Part shown: positions 1 through 9,283 of the stretch, one piece after another
Numbering within the stretch: position 1 is the stretch's first letter
How the letters are laid out: every line of letters starts with the position of its first letter
IMG/VR virus record: IMGVR_UViG_2617270957_000009
Span: 1-9,619 of that record
From: a virus
Lineage: Duplodnaviria > Heunggongvirae > Uroviricota > Caudoviricetes
Strand: one strand, 5' to 3'
DNA: 9,619 bases
The notes under the pieces: model-generated
What the model saw: only the letters and a program-made list of their open reading frames with translations
What the model was told of the DNA's origin: nothing
The model's database searches: none
Program-made: the position numbers and the translations under genes

Positions 1-687
1 CGGCAGGAAACACTGAATGAATGCACCCGTGCGGAGCAGTCGGCCAGCGTGGTGCTCTGGGAAATCGATCTGACAGAGGTCGGTGGAGAACGTTATTTTT
101 TCTGTAATGAGCAGAACGAAAAAGGTGAGCCGGTCACCTGGCAGGGGCGACAGTATCAGCCGTATCCCATTCAGGGGAGTGGTTTTGAACTGAATGGCAA
201 AGGCACCAGTACGCGCCCCACGCTGACGGTTTCTAACCTGTACGGTATGGTCACCGGGATGGCGGAAGATCTGCAGAGTCTGGTCGGCGGAACGGTGGTC
301 CGGCGTAAGGTTTACGCCCGTTTTCTGGATGCGGTGAACTTCGTCAACGGAAACAGTTACGCCGATCCGGAGCAGGAGGTGATCAGCCGCTGGCGCATTG
401 AGCAGTGCAGCGAACTGAGCGCGGTGAGTGCCTCCTTTGTACTGTCCACGCCGACGGAAACGGATGGCGCTGTTTTTCCGGGACGTATCATGCTGGCCAA
501 CACCTGCACCTGGACCTATCGCGGCGATGAGTGCGGTTATCACGGTCCGGCGGTCGCGGATGAATATGACCAGCCAACGTCCGATATCACGAAGGATAAA
601 TGCAGCAAATGCCTGAGCGGTTGTAAGTTCCGCAATAACGTCGGCAACTTTGGCGGCTTCCTTTCCATTAACAAACTTTCGCAGTAA
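1..687 (+). CDS. L: Tail tip protein L, 3' portion (5' end lies upstream of the window)
   Basis: The frame is open from nt 1 (RQETLNECTRAEQSASVVLWEIDLTEVGGERYFFC...) to TAA at 685-687. The translation matches my recollection of phage lambda gpL almost residue for residue, including the Cys-rich C-terminus (CSKCLSGCKF). The ORF track's Met at 49 is internal; the real start is upstream of the window. Confidence 0.93.
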   Translation, partial: RQETLNECTRAEQSASVVLWEIDLTEVGGERYFFCNEQNEKGEPVTWQGRQYQPYPIQGSGFELNGKGTSTRPTLTVSNLYGMVTGMAEDLQSLVGGTVVRRKVYARFLDAVNFVNGNSYADPEQEVISRWRIEQCSELSAVSASFVLSTPTETDGAVFPGRIMLANTCTWTYRGDECGYHGPAVADEYDQPTSDITKDKCSKCLSGCKFRNNVGNFGGFLSINKLSQ

Positions 688-692
688 ATCCC

Positions 693-1436
693 ATGACACA
701 GACAGAATCAGCGATTCTGGCGCACGCCCGGCGATGTGCGCCAGCGGAGTCGTGCGGCTTCGTGGTAAGCACGCCGGAGGGGGAAAGATATTTCCCCTGC
801 GTGAATATCTCCGGTGAGCCGGAGGCGTATTTCCGTATGTCGCCGGAAGACTGGCTGCAGGCAGAAATGCAGGGTGAGATTGTGGCGCTGGTCCACAGCC
901 ACCCCGGTGGTCTGCCCTGGCTGAGTGAGGCCGACCGGCGGCTGCAGGTGCAGAGTGATTTGCCGTGGTGGCTGGTCTGCCGGGGGACGATTCATAAGTT
1001 CCGCTGTGTGCCGCATCTCACCGGGCGGCGCTTTGAGCACGGTGTGACGGACTGTTACACACTGTTCCGGGATGCTTATCATCTGGCGGGGATTGAGATG
1101 CCGGACTTTCATCGTGAGGATGACTGGTGGCGTAACGGCCAGAATCTCTATCTGGATAATCTGGAGGCGACGGGGCTGTATCAGGTGCCGTTGTCAGCGG
1201 CACAGCCGGGCGATGTGCTGCTGTGCTGTTTTGGTTCATCGGTGCCGAATCACGCCGCAATTTACTGCGGCGACGGCGAGCTGCTGCACCATATTCCTGA
1301 ACAACTGAGCAAACGAGAGAGGTACACCGACAAATGGCAGCGACGCACACACTCCCTCTGGCGTCACCGGGCATGGCACGCATCTGCCTTTACGGGGATT
1401 TACAACGATTTGGCCGCCGCATCGATCTTCGTGTGA
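693..1436 (+). CDS. K: Tail tip assembly protein K (N-terminal JAMM/MPN metalloprotease-like domain plus C-terminal NlpC/P60 cysteine peptidase-like domain)
   Basis: 247-aa ORF starting 6 nt after the L stop. It carries a JAMM motif, H-x-H-x7-S-x2-D, in VHSHPGGLPWLSEAD (His codon at 894-896), and NlpC/P60-type Cys/His residues (TDCYTLF, PNHAAIY, LLHH). An alternative internal ATG at 837 would give 199 aa but would remove the N-terminal part of the MPN fold. No clear Shine-Dalgarno precedes 693, so the start is probably coupled to L. Confidence 0.88.
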   Translation: MTQTESAILAHARRCAPAESCGFVVSTPEGERYFPCVNISGEPEAYFRMSPEDWLQAEMQGEIVALVHSHPGGLPWLSEADRRLQVQSDLPWWLVCRGTIHKFRCVPHLTGRRFEHGVTDCYTLFRDAYHLAGIEMPDFHREDDWWRNGQNLYLDNLEATGLYQVPLSAAQPGDVLLCCFGSSVPNHAAIYCGDGELLHHIPEQLSKRERYTDKWQRRTHSLWRHRAWHASAFTGIYNDLAAASIFV

Positions 1437-2005
1437 AAACGGGGGCTGAAGCCATCCGGGCACTGGCCACACAGCTCCCGGCGTTTCGTCAGAAACTGAG
1501 CGACGGCTGGTATCAGGTACGGATTGCCGGGCGGGATGTCAGCACGTCCGGATTAACGGCGCAGTTACATGAGACTCTGCCTGATGGCGCTGTGATTCAT
1601 ATTGTTCCCAGAGTCGCCGGGGCCAAGTCAGGTGGCGTATTCCAGATTGTCCTGGGGGCTGCCGCCATTGCCGGATCATTCTTTACCGCCGGAGCCACCC
1701 TTGCAGCATGGGGGGCAGCCATTGGGACCGGTGGTATGACCGGCATCCTGTTTTCTCTCGGTGCCAGTATGGTGCTCGGTGGTGTGGCGCAGATGCTGGC
1801 ACCGAAAGCCAGGACGCCCACAGCGACCAGCACGGATAACGGTAAGCAGAACACGTATTTCTCTTCACTGGATAACATGGTTGCCCAGGGCAATGTTCTG
1901 CCTGTTCTGTACGGTGAAATGCGCGTGGGGTCACGCGTGGTTTCTCAGGAGATCAGCACGGCAGACGAAGGGGACGGTGGTCAGGTTGTGGTGATTGGTC
2001 GCTGA
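1334..2005 (+). CDS. I: Tail tip assembly protein I
   Basis: 223-aa ORF with an N-terminal ubiquitin-like region and a Gly/Ala-rich hydrophobic segment (GGVFQIVLGAAAIAGSFFTAGATLAAWGAAIGTGG). Its position between K and J, and its 103-nt out-of-frame overlap with the 3' end of K, match the lambda arrangement. Confidence 0.9.
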   Translation: MAATHTLPLASPGMARICLYGDLQRFGRRIDLRVKTGAEAIRALATQLPAFRQKLSDGWYQVRIAGRDVSTSGLTAQLHETLPDGAVIHIVPRVAGAKSGGVFQIVLGAAAIAGSFFTAGATLAAWGAAIGTGGMTGILFSLGASMVLGGVAQMLAPKARTPTATSTDNGKQNTYFSSLDNMVAQGNVLPVLYGEMRVGSRVVSQEISTADEGDGGQVVVIGR

Positions 2006-2065: not shown

Positions 2066-5000
2066 ATGGGTAAAGGCAGCAGTAAGGGGCATACCCCGCG
2101 CGAAGCAAAGGACAACCTGAAGTCCACGCAGTTGCTGAGTGTGATCGATGCCATCAGCGAAGGGCCGGTTGAAGGTCCGGTGGATGGATTAAAAAGCGTG
2201 CTGCTGAACAGTACACCGGTGCTGGACAGTGAGGGAAATACCAACATCTCCGGCGTCACGGTGGTGTTCCGGGCAGGTGAGCAGGAACAGACACCGCCGG
2301 AGGGATTTGAATCATCAGGTTCCGAGACGGTACTGGGTACGGAAGTGAAATACGACACGCCGATCACCCACACCATTACGTCTGCAAACATCGACCGTCT
2401 GCGCTTTACCTTCGGTGTGCAGGCACTGGTGGAAACCACTTCAAAGGGGGACCGTAATCCATCGGAAGTCCGCCTGCTGGTTCAGATACAGCGTAACGGT
2501 GGCTGGGTGACGGAAAAAGACATCACCATTAAGGGCAAAACCACCTCGCAGTATCTGGCCTCGGTGGTGGTGGATAACCTGCCTCCGCGCCCGTTCAACA
2601 TCCGGATGCGCAGGATGACGCCGGACAGCACCACAGACCAGCTGCAGAACAAAACGCTCTGGTCGTCATACACCGAAATCATCGATGTGAAACAGTGCTA
2701 CCCGAACACGGCACTGGTCGGCGTGCAGGTGGACTCGGAACAGTTCGGCAGCCAGCAGGTGAGCCGTAATTATCATCTTCGCGGGCGCATTCTGCAGGTG
2801 CCGTCGAACTATAACCCGCAGACGCGGCAATACAGCGGTATCTGGGACGGGACGTTTAAACCGGCATACAGCAACAACATGGCCTGGTGTCTGTGGGATA
2901 TGCTGACCCACCCGCGCTACGGCATGGGTAAACGTCTTGGTGCGGCAGATGTGGATAAATGGGCGCTGTATGTCATCGGCCAGAATTGCGACCAGTCGGT
3001 GCCGGACGGTTTTGGCGGCACGGAGCCGCGCATCACCTGTAATGCGTACCTGACCACACAGCGCAAGGCGTGGGATGTGCTCAGTGATTTTTGCTCGGCG
3101 ATGCGCTGTATGCCGGTATGGAACGGGCAGACGCTGACATTCGTGCAGGACCGACCGTCGGATAAGGTGTGGACCTATAACCGCAGTAATGTGGTGATGC
3201 CGGATGATGGCGCGCCGTTCCGCTACAGCTTCAGCGCCCTGAAGGACCGCCATAATGCCGTTGAGGTGAACTGGATTGACCCGGATAACGGCTGGGAGAC
3301 GGCGACAGAGCTTGTGGAGGACACGCAGGCCATTGCCCGTTACGGTCGTAACGTCACGAAGATGGATGCCTTTGGCTGTACCAGTCGGGGGCAGGCACAC
3401 CGCGCCGGGCTGTGGCTGATTAAAACGGAGCTGCTGGAAACGCAGACCGTGGACTTCAGCGTGGGCGCAGAAGGGCTTCGCCATGTACCGGGCGATGTCA
3501 TTGAAATCTGCGATGATGACTATGCGGGTATCAGCATCGGCGGGCGCGTGCTGGCGGTGAACAGCCAGGCGCGGACACTGACGCTCGACCGTGAAATCAT
3601 GCTGCCATCCTCCGGCACCACGCTGATAAGCCTGGTTGACGGAAATGGCAATCCGGTCAGCGTGGAGGTCCAGTCCGTCACCGACGGCGTGAAGGTGAAA
3701 GTGAGCCGTGTTCCTGACGGCGTTGCCGGATACAGCGTGTGGGGACTGAAGCTGCCGACGCTGCGCCAGCGCCTGTTCCGCTGCGTGAGTATCCGTGAGA
3801 ACGACGACGGCACGTATGCCATCACCGCCGTGCAGCATGTACCGGCAAAAGAGGCCATCGTGGATAACGGGGCGCACTTTGACGGCGACCAGAGCGGCAC
3901 GGTGAATGGTGTCACGCCGCCAGCAGTGCAGCACCTGACTGCCGAAGTCACCGCAGACAGCGGGGAGTATCAGGTACTGGCCCGCTGGGACACGCCGAAG
4001 GTGGTGAAGGGCGTAAGTTTCATGCTTCGCCTGACCGTGGCAGCGGATGACGGCAGTGAGCGGCTGGTCAGCACAGCCCGGACGGCGGAAACCACATACC
4101 GCTTCACACAACTGGCGCTGGGGAACTACAGGCTGACAGTCCGGGCAGTAAATGCGTGGGGGCAGCAGGGCGATCCGGCATCGGTATCGTTCCGGATTGC
4201 CGCACCGGCAGCGCCGTCGCAGATTGAGCTGACACCGGGGTATTTTCAGATAACCGCCACGCCGCATCTTGCGGTTTATGATCCGACGGTACAGTTTGAG
4301 TTCTGGTTCTCGGAAAAGCGGATTGCGGATATCAGGCAGGTTGAAACCACAGCACGCTATCTTGGCACGGCGCTGTACTGGATAGCCGCCAGTATCAATA
4401 TCAAACCGGGCCATGATTATTATTTTTACATCCGCAGTGTGAACACCGTTGGCAAATCGGCATTTGTGGAGGCTGTTGGCCAGCCGAGTGATGATGCATC
4501 CGGCTATCTGAATTTTTTCAAAGGAGAGATAGGGAAAACCCATCTGGCTCAGGAGTTGTGGACGCAGATTGATAACGGTCAGCTTGCGCCTGACCTGGCT
4601 GAAATCAGGACGTCCATTACGGGTGTCAGCAATGAAATCACGCAGACCGTCAATAAGAAACTGGAAGACCAGAGTGCAGCGATCCAGCAGATACAGAAGG
4701 TTCAGGTTGATACAAATAATAATCTGAACAGCATGTGGGCTGTGAAGCTGCAGCAGATGCAGGATGGACGCCTTTATATTGCGGGTATCGGTGCCGGTAT
4801 TGAGAACACCCCTGACGGCATGCAGAGTCAGGTGCTGCTGGCGGCGGACAGGATTGCGATGGTTAATCCTGCGAATGGCAACACAAAACCGATGTTTGTT
4901 GGTCAGGGCGATCAGATATTCATGAACGACGTGTTCCTGAAACGCCTGACGGCCCCCACCATTACCAGCGGTGGAAATCCACCGGCATTTTCCCTGACAC

Positions 5001-5548
5001 CGGACGGGCGGCTGACGGCGAAAAATGCCGATATCAGCGGTAACGTGAATGCGAACTCCGGGACGCTCAACAACGTCACGATTAACGAGAACTGTCGGAT
5101 TCTGGGAAAACTGTCAGCTAACCAGATTGAAGGTGATATTGTCAAAACGGTGGGAAAAGCCTTTCCGAGAAATGGCAGTTATGCCAGCGGTACAATAACG
5201 GTCACTGTGTACGATGACCAGGCTTTTGACCGTCAGATAGTAGTCCCCCCCGTTCTGTTTCGCGGTGGTAAGCATGAAAACTTCAACAGCAACAACCAAC
5301 AGTCATACTGGTATTCAACCTGTAAGCTGCAGGTGCTGAAGAACGGACAGGAAATCTTTCAGCAACCCGCGACGGATGTCAGCAGGGTATTTTCATCAGT
5401 CATTGATATGCCTGCCGGACACGGCCATGTCACCCTGACTTTCAATGTTTCTTCATATGGTGCAAATAACTGGACGCCAACGACCAGTATCAGCGACCTT
5501 CTTGTTGTCGTGATGAAGAAATCAACAGCCGGTATCAGTATCAGTTGA
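2066..5548 (+). CDS. J: Central tail fibre / host specificity protein J
   Basis: 1160-aa ORF with a strong RBS (GAGGA 5 nt before ATG). The N-terminal roughly 800 aa match my recollection of lambda gpJ ([34 protein letters not shown]...), including a fibronectin-III-like segment. The C-terminal roughly 350 aa are a mosaic of conserved islands ([38 protein letters not shown]) and divergent stretches. Stop is TGA at 5546-5548. Confidence 0.95.
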
Positions 5549-5565
5549 ATTTTAAAACCCAAATT

Positions 5566-5593
5566 CGGGCACCAGAAATGGTGCCTTTTTTAT
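5566..5593 (+). terminator. Rho-independent terminator downstream of J
   Basis: Stem GGCACC (5568-5573) / GGTGCC (5580-5585) with loop AGAAAT, followed by TTTTTTATTT, 20 nt after the J stop. Confidence 0.7.
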
Positions 5594-5606
5594 TTGTGGA
5601 GTGAAT

Positions 5607-7961
5607 ATGGCAGTACAGATTTCAGGTGTGCTGAAAGACGGTGCAGGAAAACCGATACAGAACTGCACCATTCAGCTCAAAGCAAAACGTAACAGCACCA
5701 CGGTTGTGGTAAACACGGTGGCCTCAGAAAATCCGGATGAAGCCGGACGTTACAGCATGGATGTCGAGTATGGCCAGTACAGCGTTATCCTGCTGGTTGA
5801 AGGTTTTCCGCCTTCACATGCCGGGACCATTACCGTCTATGAAGGTTCCAGTCCGGGGACGCTGAATGATTTTCTCGGTGCCATGACGGAAGATGATGTC
5901 ATGCCGGAGGCATTGCGTCGTTTTGAGGCAATGGTGGAAGAAGCGGCACGCAACGCCGAAGCCGCCTCTCAGAGCGCAGCGGCGGCAAAGAAATCCGAAA
6001 CTGCAGCGGCATCATCGAAGAACGCGGCGAAAACCTCAGAAACGAATGCAGCTAATAGTGCACAGGCGGCAGCGACCTCACAGACTGCATCGGCAAACTC
6101 CGCGACAGCAGCCAAAAAATCAGAAACCAACGCGAAAAATAGCGAGACAGCCGCAAAGACGAGTGAAATCAACGCAAAGTCCAGCCAGACGGCAGCGAAG
6201 ACCAGCGAAACGAATGCCAAAGCCAGTGAAACTGCGGCGAAAAGCAGTCAAGCTGCAGCAGCCGAAAGCGAGAGTGTTGCAGCCGGTTCTGCGACTTCAG
6301 CAGCTGGATCAGCAACTGCTGCGGCTAACAGCCAGAAAGCTGCGAAGACGAGTGAAACTAACGCAAAGTCCAGCCAGACGGCAGCGAAGACCAGCGAAAC
6401 GAATGCCAAAGCCAGCGAAACTGCGGCGAAAAACAGTCAGGATGCAGCAGCCGAAAGCGAGAGTGCTGCAGCTGGTTCTGCAACAGCGGCAGCTAATAGC
6501 CAAAAAGCTGCAAAAGCCAGTGAAACTAACGCAAAGACGAGTGAAACAAAAGCAGCAGCTAGCGAGACAGAAGCAACGTCAGCCGCAACAAGAGCAGAGA
6601 ATGCAGCCCGGATTGCAGAAGATGCCGCTGATCCTGCTTCTGTCCCTCCGCTTCCTGATATCTGGCTACCCATGAATGATTCTCTGGAAGCGATAACAGG
6701 GTATGCCCCGGGCTATAAAACAATAACCATCGGCAGTGATGAAATAACAATGCCTGTTAATGGCATATGCCAATTTAGCCGGGCTTCATCTGCAACGTAT
6801 ATTGATAAGTCAGGGCATATTACCGTGGCAGGGAATAACGTTCCTCGTTTTGAAAAATATGGTTTGCTGATAGAGAATCAGCGAACAAACATGTTCGTAA
6901 ATAGTTTTAATCCTGATGCCTGGAATAAAAGCGGTGGTATATCTGTAACATCATCAACAGATGAATTTGAGTTTAAATATGGACGTTTCACAGTAGGAAG
7001 CGACATAGCAGGAACGACAACAGGGAGAAATATATGCACAGTTGCTGGTAATAAAGGCATAGATGTGACTGGCGATGATCAGTACAGTAAAGGTCCGTAT
7101 GTTACCGCGTCGTTCAGGGTAAGAAGTGATCTCAATGTTCGCGCACGTATCCGTTTTGAACGGTATAACTCGGAAGGATACACTTTCCTTTGTGACGCCT
7201 ATTTGTCATTACAGACCCATGAACTACAAATTACGGGTGGTAATGCCCAGCTATTAACAGCAAACTTTGAAATCGATCCAGGTAGTGGATGGATATATTT
7301 TCAGGCAACCCTGAAATGTTTGCCAGAATGGGGAATGGTTGGTACGCAGTTGCAAATTGCAGCCGACAGAGCTGTGGGGTCTTTTGCAACAGGTGACTGG
7401 ATAGAAGTAACCACCCCGCAATTTGAGTATGGTGCTTGTGCAACTTCCTTTATCATAACGACAACAGAGCCAGCTACTCGTGCATCAGATTTATGTAAAT
7501 TTCCGCTGATGAAAAATATGTATACCATGCCTTTTACGTTCATGGTGGAAGTCCATAAAAACTGGTTTATTTCTCATAATGCTGCACCGCGTGTCATTGA
7601 TTCAGAAAATCACCAGTCCGGGGGCCCATTTATTATGGGGTTTGGTTCTTCTGGAACTATCAGTCAGGACGGTTATTCGTATTGCGATATAGGCGGGGCT
7701 AACCGACGTGTATATGAGTCATGCGGAGTAAGAGATCTCGTTATGGGATTCAGGGTTAAGGCTGACGGCATGACATGCTCATTTGCAAATAAGCATATAA
7801 GCACAGAAACAAAAACAGTATGGAAATATATTCGTGAAGCTGCTGTGATTCGTATCGGGGGACAAACGACGACAGGATTACGACACCTTAATGGTCATAT
7901 AAAAAACCTCCGTTTCTGGAACAGAGCATTGTCAGATACGCAGCTTAAGGAATACGTATAA
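5607..7961 (+). CDS. stf: Side tail fibre protein (lambda Stf-like N-terminus, Ala/Ser-rich repeat shaft, LamG/concanavalin A-like C-terminal domain)
   Basis: The ORF track starts at GTG 5601, but ATG 5607 with GGAG at 5598-5601 (5-nt spacer) is the better start, giving MAVQISGVLKDGAGKPIQNCTIQLKAKRNSTTVVVNTV..., which matches the conserved N-terminus of lambda Stf. The middle is repetitive (AAKTSETNAK...). The C-terminus ends in ...IRIGGQTTTGLRHLNGHIKNLRFWNRALSDTQLKEYV, typical of the final strands of LamG-type jelly-roll domains. Stop is TAA at 7959-7961. Length is 784 aa from ATG 5607. Confidence 0.88.
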   Translation: MAVQISGVLKDGAGKPIQNCTIQLKAKRNSTTVVVNTVASENPDEAGRYSMDVEYGQYSVILLVEGFPPSHAGTITVYEGSSPGTLNDFLGAMTEDDVMPEALRRFEAMVEEAARNAEAASQSAAAAKKSETAAASSKNAAKTSETNAANSAQAAATSQTASANSATAAKKSETNAKNSETAAKTSEINAKSSQTAAKTSETNAKASETAAKSSQAAAAESESVAAGSATSAAGSATAAANSQKAAKTSETNAKSSQTAAKTSETNAKASETAAKNSQDAAAESESAAAGSATAAANSQKAAKASETNAKTSETKAAASETEATSAATRAENAARIAEDAADPASVPPLPDIWLPMNDSLEAITGYAPGYKTITIGSDEITMPVNGICQFSRASSATYIDKSGHITVAGNNVPRFEKYGLLIENQRTNMFVNSFNPDAWNKSGGISVTSSTDEFEFKYGRFTVGSDIAGTTTGRNICTVAGNKGIDVTGDDQYSKGPYVTASFRVRSDLNVRARIRFERYNSEGYTFLCDAYLSLQTHELQITGGNAQLLTANFEIDPGSGWIYFQATLKCLPEWGMVGTQLQIAADRAVGSFATGDWIEVTTPQFEYGACATSFIITTTEPATRASDLCKFPLMKNMYTMPFTFMVEVHKNWFISHNAAPRVIDSENHQSGGPFIMGFGSSGTISQDGYSYCDIGGANRRVYESCGVRDLVMGFRVKADGMTCSFANKHISTETKTVWKYIREAAVIRIGGQTTTGLRHLNGHIKNLRFWNRALSDTQLKEYV
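6156..6512 (+). repeat. In-frame near-perfect tandem duplication (189-nt unit = 63 aa) inside the stf shaft region
   Basis: Copy 1 at 6156-6344 and copy 2 at 6345-6512 are almost identical at nucleotide level (AAGACGAGTGAAA.CAACGCAAAGTCCAGCCAGACGGCAGCGAAGACCAGCGAAACGAATGCCAAAGCCAG...). Copy 2 lacks a 21-nt segment (GSATSAAGSATAAANSQ versus GSATAAANSQ). Degenerate shorter units encoding AAK(T/S)SETNA extend from about 5985 to about 6570. Confidence 0.85.
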
Positions 7962-8242: not shown

Positions 8243-9283
8243 ATGGTTACAAAAACAGTAATTCCTGAAGACATCAAAACGCTAAAATCCGACGTTAGAA
8301 AATTAAAAAACGATCAAGGAAGCTACGCAACAAAATCATATGTAGACAGCAAAGATGAAACCGTTGGTGACTGGTCTGCTTCATGGTATCAGCAGGTATT
8401 GCCAACTAGCGGAGCTATATTTGGGAGAAAACTCCGCTCAACTCACCGGACGGCAGGTGTTGAGGATGCGTATTGCGAACTATACCTCAAAAAATGGATA
8501 GACAGTCCAGGTAACGCAATGGCGCGCCTTAACCTGAACGATAACGGGACAAACATTTGCTGGGACTTTACCAACCTTTATGGCGGTACGATGATTTTTC
8601 CCGGTGGCAGCGGATACCTCAAAATGGGTAACTGCCTTATGTCATACAGCAAGCGTGGAAGTAACGCGCTTATTAAATTTGATTACACCGACACATTACA
8701 GATCAAATATGCTAATCATGGGTCAACCATGACATTAAACACACAGGGAACCGCTTATGCTGGTGTTACCGCTAAATTGTGGGGCAACTCCAGCCGTCCT
8801 GTTGTTTATGAAGTCGGTGTTGATGGTGGCGCTTATATGTTCTACGGTCAGAAACAAACCGATAATACCTATGCGTTCGCTGTTAATGGTGCATGTCATG
8901 CCACCGCCTTTAACCAGGCTTCCGACCGAGATCTGAAAGATAATCTTCAGGTGATTGATAATGCAACAGATCGCATCCGCAAGATGAACGGCTATACCTA
9001 TACCCTTAAGGAAAACGGTATGCCCTATGCAGGTGTCATTGCACAGGAAGCTCTGGAAGCAATCCCGGAAGTTGTAGGCTCCGCAATGAAATATCAGGAC
9101 GGTGGAAACGGCTCGGAAGGGGAAGAAGGTGAGCGTTACTACACTGTAGATTATTCTGGTATTACTGGCTTGCTTGTTCAGGTAGCCAGAGAGTCAGACG
9201 ACAGAATAACAGCACTGGAAGAAGAAAACGCAGAATTAAGACAAAGATTATCTGCAATTGAGGCGGCGCTTGCGTCTAAATAA
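8243..9283 (+). CDS. Tail fibre / tailspike-like protein with C-terminal peptidase S74 intramolecular chaperone (auto-processing) domain
   Basis: GGAG lies 7 nt upstream of the ATG. The C-terminal roughly 120 aa fit the S74 chaperone-domain pattern: SDRDLKDN...(K)MNGYTYTLKENG.PYAGVIAQEALEAIPEVV...ERYYTVDYSGITGLLVQVARE, followed by a coiled-coil-like tail (ITALEEENAELRQRLSAIEAALASK). The N-terminal 226 aa are Gly/Thr/Tyr-rich and beta-rich in character. Confidence 0.82.
   Translation: MVTKTVIPEDIKTLKSDVRKLKNDQGSYATKSYVDSKDETVGDWSASWYQQVLPTSGAIFGRKLRSTHRTAGVEDAYCELYLKKWIDSPGNAMARLNLNDNGTNICWDFTNLYGGTMIFPGGSGYLKMGNCLMSYSKRGSNALIKFDYTDTLQIKYANHGSTMTLNTQGTAYAGVTAKLWGNSSRPVVYEVGVDGGAYMFYGQKQTDNTYAFAVNGACHATAFNQASDRDLKDNLQVIDNATDRIRKMNGYTYTLKENGMPYAGVIAQEALEAIPEVVGSAMKYQDGGNGSEGEEGERYYTVDYSGITGLLVQVARESDDRITALEEENAELRQRLSAIEAALASK

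Follow-up and report, generated by a model that had tools for sequence, protein, structure and literature searches.

The 3′ portion of gene J in the window (the whole 9,619-nucleotide stretch of viral DNA analyzed here) encodes the well-known phage 21 version of the end of this protein. This version is common in E. coli prophages, so the allele is already known and ordinary. We consider it probable that positions 4480–5548 are the distal fibre half of a phage-21-like prophage, consisting of phage 21 cassettes, shaped by recombination and directed at LamB.

Gene J and its divergence from lambda

The J gene follows L (49–687), K (693–1436) and I (1334–2005), each with a match to the corresponding Pfam family. 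This is the order of a lambdoid tail module, as expected for a lambda-like J. Its product scores above the curated cut-offs of six Pfam families, arranged in the expected order (FNIII-A_GpJ, Phage-tail_3, Ig_J, Ig_J_second, Phage_Tail_Tip and Ig_GpJ_C). The resulting layout comprises a hub, two Ig/FNIII domains, a tail-tip fibre and a C-terminal Ig-like receptor-binding domain (Table 1). Over its whole length, the protein shares 98% of its residues with phage 21 J and 83% with lambda J. As in phage 21, lom is absent 3′ of J; the next gene begins at 5601, and the intervening hairpin and T run are the same element that carries a terminator annotation in phage 21. No Rfam matches were found anywhere in the window, and no repeats above chance level were found in 4300–5700. 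Minus-strand open reading frames of 61–77 residues inside J were taken as spurious.

Table 1. Features of gene J and its 3′ flank in the window.
Feature	Residues	Position	Strand	Basis or remark
J, tip attachment protein / central tail fibre	1–1160	2066..5548	+	Open reading frame and translation, 1160 aa
Conserved body of J (hub domains and two Ig/FNIII domains)	1–805	2066..4480	+	Sequence identity
Long allele of the alpha-helical shaft	806–890	4481..4735	+	Alignment, AlphaFold2 model
Stretch with 28 residues missing in lambda J	837–867	4574..4666	+	Alignments
Upper beta-prism fibre	891–940	4736..4885	+	Moderately diverged
Lower prism, shared stretch joining alleles	941–1010	4886..5095	+
Patch in the conserved prism, unlike phage 21 and like other J alleles		4930..5030	+
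C-terminal block with Ig-like receptor-binding domain (~1021–1160)	1011–1160	5096..5545	+
Codon I1025	1025	5138..5140	+	Ile kept in the window (translation)
Hairpin, longer than the loop of lambda	1071–1080	5276..5305	+	First codon E1071 (gaa)
Second hairpin, ANNWTP	1133–1138	5462..5479	+	Equivalent to phi330 A1015–P1020
Terminator-like hairpin and T run 3′ of J		5567..5596	+

Comparison with lambda J (NC_001416) divides the protein into two unequal parts. Residues 1–805 align without gaps and are 97.0% identical (781/805), compared to 51.4% (185/360, with 38 gap columns) for residues 806–1160 (Fisher p = 9e-78). The original prediction, which took the first ~800 residues to be nearly identical to lambda gpJ and placed a mosaic C-terminal region at 4480–5548, is thus borne out on both points, with codon 806 starting at 4481. 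The body is likewise conserved in phage 21 (98.3%) and in PhiR47_1, PhiR11_1 and 434 (97.6–98.0%). The alternation of conserved and replaced blocks that had been noticed in the last ~350 residues is also real, and tracks domain boundaries. Identity to lambda is 28% for residues 806–890, 56% for 891–940, 90% for 941–1010 and 45% for 1011–1160 (45.5% for 1021–1160), so that the C-terminal 150 residues are far from identical to those of lambda J. Both peptides quoted in support of the mosaic occur in the J translation.

The same pattern is evident in the DNA. Identity to lambda is 88–96% up to approximately nt 4450, falls past the left junction to 16–32% at 4550–4700, is ~60% at 4700–4900, recovers to 88–92% at 4900–5000 and is 37–76% from 5100 to the stop codon. 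The G+C content across the left junction drops from ~0.63 (3600–4200) to ~0.49 (4400–4800), with the step located near nt 4400.

Phage 21 alleles and the conserved prism

Phage 21 J (CPT_21_21, UMO75436.1, GenBank OL657228) also has 1160 residues, of which 1139 are identical in the window. Of the 21 substitutions, 14 are located in residues 1–805; the other seven, which account for all differences in residues 901–1010, are located in the prism (residues 912–1008). Both diverged blocks are identical to phage 21 J, over 95/95 residues in 806–900, including the long shaft with its extra 28 residues, and over 150/150 in 1011–1160 (tblastn, 100% to OL657228).

The shaft, a domain name taken from the lambda structure paper (PMC11101478), is helical at residues 811–836 and from residue 840 on in a single-sequence AlphaFold2 model. 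Residues 806–890 are as distant from 434, PhiR47_1 and PhiR11_1 as from lambda (28%), 62–65% identical to phi330 and BP-4795, and 100% identical to phage 21. The extra 28 residues appear as gaps of 21 and 7 residues in the lambda alignment and are predicted to be helical. Two shaft forms can be distinguished: a short form in lambda, 434, PhiR47_1 and PhiR11_1, and a long form in phage 21, phi330 and BP-4795.

The upper prism lies within the Pfam Phage_Tail_Tip match (residues 872–1000) and is 96% identical to phage 21. The lower prism is 86–93% identical to lambda, phage 21, 434, PhiR47_1, PhiR11_1 and phi330, and 76% identical to BP-4795. Within this conserved stretch, a short patch departs from phage 21. 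It holds 18 of the 44 DNA mismatches between the window and phage 21, mostly with the lambda or PhiR47_1 base in the window, and positions 5000–5049 are 100% identical to PhiR47_1, compared to 84% for phage 21. Four of the seven prism substitutions (D955, R960, A974 and T984) are located in the patch; these four and the downstream E1008, five of the seven in all, carry the lambda residue.

The alleles are widespread. The receptor-binding domain is present at ≥99% amino-acid identity in 22 phage records. A set of 5,426 complete E. coli genomes includes ~1,083 records with its DNA at ≥95% identity; for the long shaft, the number of records at ≥95% is ~3,415. At least four receptor-domain types are combined with the two shaft forms.

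We infer from these identities that the block-wise divergence from lambda is the product of homologous recombination between lambdoid phages. In the window, the distal half of the fibre is made up of the shaft, the beta-prism and the Ig-like receptor-binding domain; the shaft and the receptor-binding domain would act as swappable cassettes joined via the prism stretch of residues 941–1010. Both are phage 21 alleles in the window, and the conserved joint would hold a short patch from another J lineage. Positive selection is known to act on receptor-binding domains, and J has been altered by point mutations in laboratory coevolution (bioRxiv 10.1101/2023.04.13.536812; PMC11336670), so the divergence might have arisen in place, by point mutations under diversifying selection and without cassette exchange. 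However, this is hardly credible given the sharpness of the junctions (from 96% to 20% DNA identity in ~150 nt), a shaft 28 residues longer than that of lambda together with the G+C drop at the left junction, and a fully conserved stretch flanked by two blocks whose identity to lambda is 28% and 45%. Moreover, other phages carry the same cassettes at 100% identity in different combinations. We rejected a point-mutation origin on the grounds of this varied pairing of shaft and receptor-domain alleles.

The receptor-binding domain and its likely receptor

The C-terminus of J had been taken to determine the receptor, and its assignment as a receptor-binding domain is supported by both sequence and fold. 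Residues 1038–1160 match Pfam Ig_GpJ_C, and an AlphaFold2 monomer model of the domain (mean pLDDT of 83) is most similar to the A8 gpJ structures 9wca and 9wcb (TM 0.84, 82% identical), followed by lambda gpJ in 8xck and 8xcj (TM 0.78, 48% identical). In the lambda gpJ–LamB structures, loops L1–L4 enter LamB and the signal passes via the prism and shaft (PMC11101478). These contact loops are not conserved in the window, which has a longer hairpin at 1068–1092 and shorter loops at 1036–1040 and 1131–1133. Because the domain is 45% identical to that of lambda and its loops are of other length, the residue-level contacts of lambda cannot be conserved. To this extent, the original prediction that the phage probably does not use the same receptor contact as lambda on LamB is correct. 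A change of receptor, however, does not follow. Divergence of the J C-terminus from lambda does not by itself imply such a change, since both lambda and phage 21 use LamB at a mutual identity of 45% in this region. The phage 21 domain is ~81% identical to those of A8 and phi330, which use a different receptor.

LamB is reported as the native and only receptor of phage 21 (OL657228) (bioRxiv 10.1101/2023.04.13.536812; PMC11336670). Since residues 1011–1160 of the window are those of phage 21, the likeliest receptor is the same as that of lambda. Thus, judging from the sequence, J of the window likely recognizes LamB, through a binding surface unlike that of lambda. Following the lambda gpJ precedent, the J domain, as a trimer, would engage a trimeric porin in the outer membrane whose mouth takes up the distal loops, and binding would be relayed up the prism and shaft, upon which the tail tip opens. 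In phage 21, the substitution I1025T adds the use of OmpC, the ancestor being scored 'L' only (PMC11336670). This substitution is absent in the window and, by analogy, OmpC use may be one substitution away. OmpC as the native receptor of phage 21 was considered and rejected, as the papers give LamB as native and OmpC as an evolved gain.

Residues at the prism end can change the receptor use of phage 21 (PMC11336670), and the seven prism differences between the window and phage 21 count against carrying over the LamB assignment. J of the phage 21 stock used in the receptor tests departs from the GenBank sequence only at G18903A, a change that results in E1071K (bioRxiv 10.1101/2023.04.13.536812). 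Residue 1071 is glutamate in the window and in GenBank phage 21, and lysine in the laboratory stock. LamB dependence is thus reported for the E1071K stock, by the data of one laboratory. A literature search for '21EL' and LamB found no independent evidence of LamB use; the phage 21 genome announcement makes no receptor statement, and PMC12803456 cites only the same laboratory on this point. Receptor data were also sought for other phages that carry this same receptor domain: the paper using the PhiR phages contains no lamB or ompC plating of them, and the mEp paper does not mention mEp460.

Residue 1071 is the first of a hairpin that corresponds to E953–S962 of phi330. In the phi330 model, this hairpin is predicted to project into the OmpC barrel (PMC12502783); its sequence is the same in the window, in phage 21, in A8 and in phi330. 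The second hairpin, whose phi330 equivalent is predicted to contact OmpC (PMC12502783), is also the same in the window, A8 and phi330. An alternative is that the wild-type E1071 allele binds OmpC, alone or with LamB, and that exclusive LamB use is a laboratory trait of E1071K, a substitution of the residue with which the first hairpin begins. Apart from phage 21, the closest receptor-tested relatives are OmpC users. A8 gpJ, 82% identical in the receptor domain, has been solved in complex with OmpC (9wcb), and cells that lack both lamB and ompC receive DNA by way of it when they are complemented with OmpC; phi330, with an 81% identical domain, fails only on an ompC deletion (PMC12502783). A single substitution suffices to give phage 21 the use of OmpC (PMC11336670), and lysine at 1071 was found in 0/23 natural relatives inspected. 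On the other hand, the nearest receptor-tested phage, with one difference in 140 residues, is LamB-only, and nothing indicates that E1071K alters receptor use. The window is also not nearly identical to the OmpC users, A8 and phi330, from which it differs at 26–27 of 140 residues (81–82% identity), and these differences cluster in other loops (1030–1038, 1047–1049, 1099–1107 and 1119–1122). We regard OmpC binding by the wild-type allele, alone or with LamB, as rather unlikely. If true, one charge change at the tip of a porin-entering hairpin would switch the receptor, and the window allele, A8 and phi330 would form a natural series mapping the choice between LamB and OmpC by one Ig-like domain.

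A receptor other than LamB or OmpC, such as OmpF, FhuA or BtuB, is very unlikely. FhuA is used by other lambdoid J alleles (PMC11893012), and OmpF can be reached by evolved phage 21 (bioRxiv 10.1101/2023.04.13.536812). However, the receptor-tested members of this domain lineage (phage 21, A8 and phi330) all use LamB or OmpC, and OmpF use by phage 21 required four J mutations that are absent in the window.

Beyond annotation, in which the window is to be labelled with the phage 21 allele of J, these results matter little. Host-range prediction for the prophage should start from LamB as the preferred assignment, with OmpC as the alternative, and assume no new receptor. The one point that may interest specialists is a possible effect of E1071K in the laboratory stock of phage 21.

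Comparison with known systems

Lambda gpJ (P03749; structures 8iyk and 8xck, and 8xcj with LamB) has the same gene position and domain order as J of the window. Phage 21 resembles the window beyond J as well, since sitDCBA is located downstream of the tail genes on the source contig (JOMX01000086.1), as is sitABCD in phage 21. The stf gene, in contrast, has 21-like DNA for ~250 nt after its start and then continues as in PhiR47_1 and PhiR11_1, unlike phage 21; this switch is the right-hand junction of the mosaic.

PhiR47_1 is the best overall match to the window, but its receptor domain is only 60% identical. PhiR11_1 is collinear with the window outside J, including the downstream region, but has a short shaft and a 434-like receptor domain. 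This domain of 434 and PhiR11_1 is 39% identical to that of the window and is combined with a lambda-type short shaft, whereas residues 1–805 and the lower prism of these phages are nearly identical to the window. Phage 434 has been described as OmpC-targeting (PMC12502783).

The A8 gpJ chimera (9wca, and 9wcb with OmpC) and phi330 J belong to the same receptor-domain lineage as the window, although their receptor by experiment is OmpC. A string search of supplementary sequences for the phage 21 allele in a second engineered chimera, 1A2, returned only the A8 type, which is weak evidence given that the searched text was machine-read and imperfect. Phi330 shares the long shaft type of the window, and the fusion point of the A8 chimera is located in the same conserved prism stretch.

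Divergence of the J C-terminus and its source

As originally predicted, roughly the first 800 residues of J are nearly identical to lambda J (781/805 over aa 1-805, 97.0% by alignment), and the last 350 or so alternate between conserved and replaced blocks (185/360 over aa 806-1160, 51.4%, with 38 gap columns; p = 9e-78 for the contrast between the two parts, Fisher's test). Both peptides quoted in that prediction are present in the J translation, and its coordinates (4480-5548) hold. The alternation tracks the domains of the lambda tail-fibre structures, from which the domain boundaries were taken (PMC11101478), and the C-terminal 150 residues are far from lambda-like (Table). DNA identity to lambda, 88-96% before nt 4450, falls to 16-32% at 4550-4700, recovers to 88-92% at 4900-5000, and is 37-76% from 5100 on. 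The G+C content drops from ~0.63 to ~0.49 across the left junction of the divergent region.

Table. Features of the window, of J and of the adjoining contig sequence
Feature	Position	Strand	Basis or remark
L	49-687		ORF and Pfam
K	693-1436		ORF and Pfam
I	1334-2005		ORF and Pfam
J, 1160 aa	2066-5548	+	ORF and Pfam
J helical shaft	aa 806-890		28% identity to lambda, 28 extra residues
J upper beta-prism	aa 891-940		56% identity to lambda
J lower prism	aa 941-1010		90% identity to lambda
J C-terminal block with receptor-binding domain	aa 1011-1160		45% identity to lambda
Antisense open frame, 625 aa	2666-4543	-	within G+C-rich part of J
Terminator-like hairpin	5567-5596		after J
Side tail fibre gene (stf), 786 aa	5601-7961		followed by three smaller ORFs
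ORF, 346 aa, Peptidase_S74 domain (aa 227-278)	8243-9283		Pfam
ABC-3, ABC-3, ABC_tran and ZnuA genes	9712-13161 of source contig	-	Pfam; just past the window's end

By sequence, the divergent end is the phage 21 allele. Residues match those of phage 21 J (OL657228) at 1139/1160 positions of J, including all 95 residues of the shaft region (aa 806-900) and 150/150 of the C-terminal block. The receptor-binding domain occurs at an amino acid identity of at least 99% in 22 phage records, among them those of phage 21, mEp460_4F5, the Lambda_ev phages, 1H12 and PhiR47_2. A scan of 5,426 complete E. coli genomes gives ~1,083 records with the receptor-domain DNA at ≥95% identity and ~3,415 with the long shaft plus upper prism, also at ≥95%; thus, the short shaft of lambda is not the commoner form.

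The Pfam match to Phage_Tail_Tip covers aa 872-1000, and that to Ig_GpJ_C, which represents the C-terminal receptor-binding domain, covers aa 1038-1160. For aa 1001-1160, an AlphaFold2 model built from 24 sequences shows a beta-sandwich with a mean pLDDT of 83. Its best solved matches are A8 gpJ, closed (9wca) and open with OmpC (9wcb) (TM 0.84, 82% identical), followed by lambda gpJ, closed (8xck) and open with LamB (8xcj) (TM 0.78, 48% identical). In a single-sequence model of aa 801-910 the inserted stretch is predicted helical, with helices covering aa 811-836 and everything from aa 840 onward; going by this weak model, the shaft might be ~4 nm longer if the 28 extra residues extend the three-helix shaft. 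The template for J signalling is lambda gpJ (PMC11101478). By analogy, the distal loops of the trimeric receptor domain would enter the porin trimer at its extracellular mouth, after which the domain base would spread, the prism twist, the helical shaft flip and the tail tip open. The window offers nothing against a lambda-type mechanism; the prism is conserved and the longer shaft is predicted to be helical.

Receptor of the window J

The receptor-tested phage closest to the window's receptor domain is phage 21. According to the Meyer laboratory reports, LamB is its native and only receptor, I1025T alone adds OmpC, and OmpF follows after further J mutations (bioRxiv 10.1101/2023.04.13.536812, PMC11336670). 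The window J keeps I1025 in translation, and on these grounds its receptor is probably LamB. The suggestion that the divergent C-terminus makes a receptor contact other than lambda's agrees with the low identity of that block, but the change of receptor that it implied does not follow, given the identity to phage 21, for which LamB is reported.

This assignment falls short of certainty for three reasons. The laboratory stock of phage 21 behind the published receptor and coevolution studies carries, according to the same preprint, G18903A in J relative to OL657228 (bioRxiv 10.1101/2023.04.13.536812). The change maps to codon 1071, gaa to aaa (E1071K), and the window has gaa at 5276-5278. Residue 1071 is the first of a 10-residue hairpin (aa 1071-1080), a likely contact, which is the counterpart of phi330 E953-S962, predicted by its authors to point into the OmpC barrel (PMC12502783); ANNWTP (aa 1133-1138) is the equivalent of the other predicted contact, A1015-P1020. 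The window, phage 21, A8 and phi330 have the same residues in both hairpins, and lambda differs from them in both. Finally, A8 and phi330, the next closest tested relatives after phage 21, both use OmpC: A8 gpJ delivers DNA into cells that lack both lamB and ompC once these are supplied with OmpC (PMC11338833) and was solved OmpC-bound (9wcb), and phi330 fails on the ompC deletion only (PMC12502783). Relative to the window, these two have substitutions at 26-27 of 140 positions, clustered at 1030-1038, 1047-1049, 1058-1060, 1087-1092, 1099-1107 and 1119-1122. OmpC, or dual use, is a distinctly less likely reading than LamB, and any other receptor is very improbable. The accessible portions of the phage 21 receptor and coevolution work contain no discussion of E1071K, and whether this substitution matters for the LamB-only phenotype reported there is the sole thread of interest.

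Gene context and mosaic origin

The window is the tail-tip section of a lambdoid prophage. Its exact J protein is on record in one contig, JOMX01000086.1 (assembly GCA_000711415.1), where the four transporter genes adjoining the tail fibre genes belong to the same Pfam families as the sitDCBA iron/manganese transporter; phage 21 likewise has sitDCBA-type cargo at the same place, after the tail genes. Between J and stf (5549-5600) there is no lom and only the terminator-like hairpin, a layout common to the window, phage 21 and PhiR11_1, whereas lom follows J in lambda, 434, PhiR47_1, phi330 and BP-4795. The stf gene is itself mosaic, with a long Ala/Ser/Lys/Thr-rich repetitive stretch mostly missing from phage 21, and AT skew reaches 0.57 at 6000-6600 within it. 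Peptidase_S74 is an intramolecular chaperone of endosialidase-type fibres, and its presence in the 346-aa ORF suggests that this is another fibre or spike protein, one that carries a self-cleaving chaperone; the PhiR11_1 counterpart is annotated as hypothetical. The antisense frame is taken as a composition artefact; J also holds short minus-strand ORFs. The whole window gave no Rfam matches, and repeats in 4300-5700 are at chance level only.

Across eight J genes (window, lambda, 21, 434, PhiR47_1, PhiR11_1, phi330 and BP-4795), the shaft and receptor-binding domain assort independently: shafts are of two types and receptor domains of four or more. In the lower prism, six of the other seven genes are 86-93% identical to the window and BP-4795 is 76% identical. 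PhiR11_1 shares the window's gene coordinates downstream of J but has a short shaft and a 434-like receptor domain (39% identical to the window's), and PhiR47_1 is the best overall DNA match, yet its receptor domain is just 60% identical. The conserved joint of the window itself appears recombinant from its sequence. Over nt 4930-5030 there are 18 differences from phage 21, at which the window mostly has the lambda or PhiR47_1 base, and nt 5000-5049 are 100% identical to PhiR47_1. The prism has seven amino acid differences from phage 21; five of these residues, four in the patch and E1008, are lambda's. The conserved prism would provide the homology for exchange of J cassettes; engineers grafted natural J ends onto lambda at aa 964, in the same stretch (PMC11338833).

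On the right, 21-like DNA runs past the J terminator and ~250 nt into stf, then becomes PhiR47_1/PhiR11_1-like. The K region (nt 601-1400) is 99-100% identical to lambda and 94-97% to phage 21, whereas the sequence on either side is as close to one as to the other, indicating fine-scale mosaicism also within the conserved tail genes. The J mosaic is ordinary lambdoid mosaicism. That the J C-terminus determines host range and undergoes mosaic exchange between lambdoid phages has been described already, as has the present allele; what is new in the window is only the combination of a phage 21 shaft and receptor domain with a lambda/PhiR47_1-like joint patch and a PhiR47_1/PhiR11_1-like side fibre.
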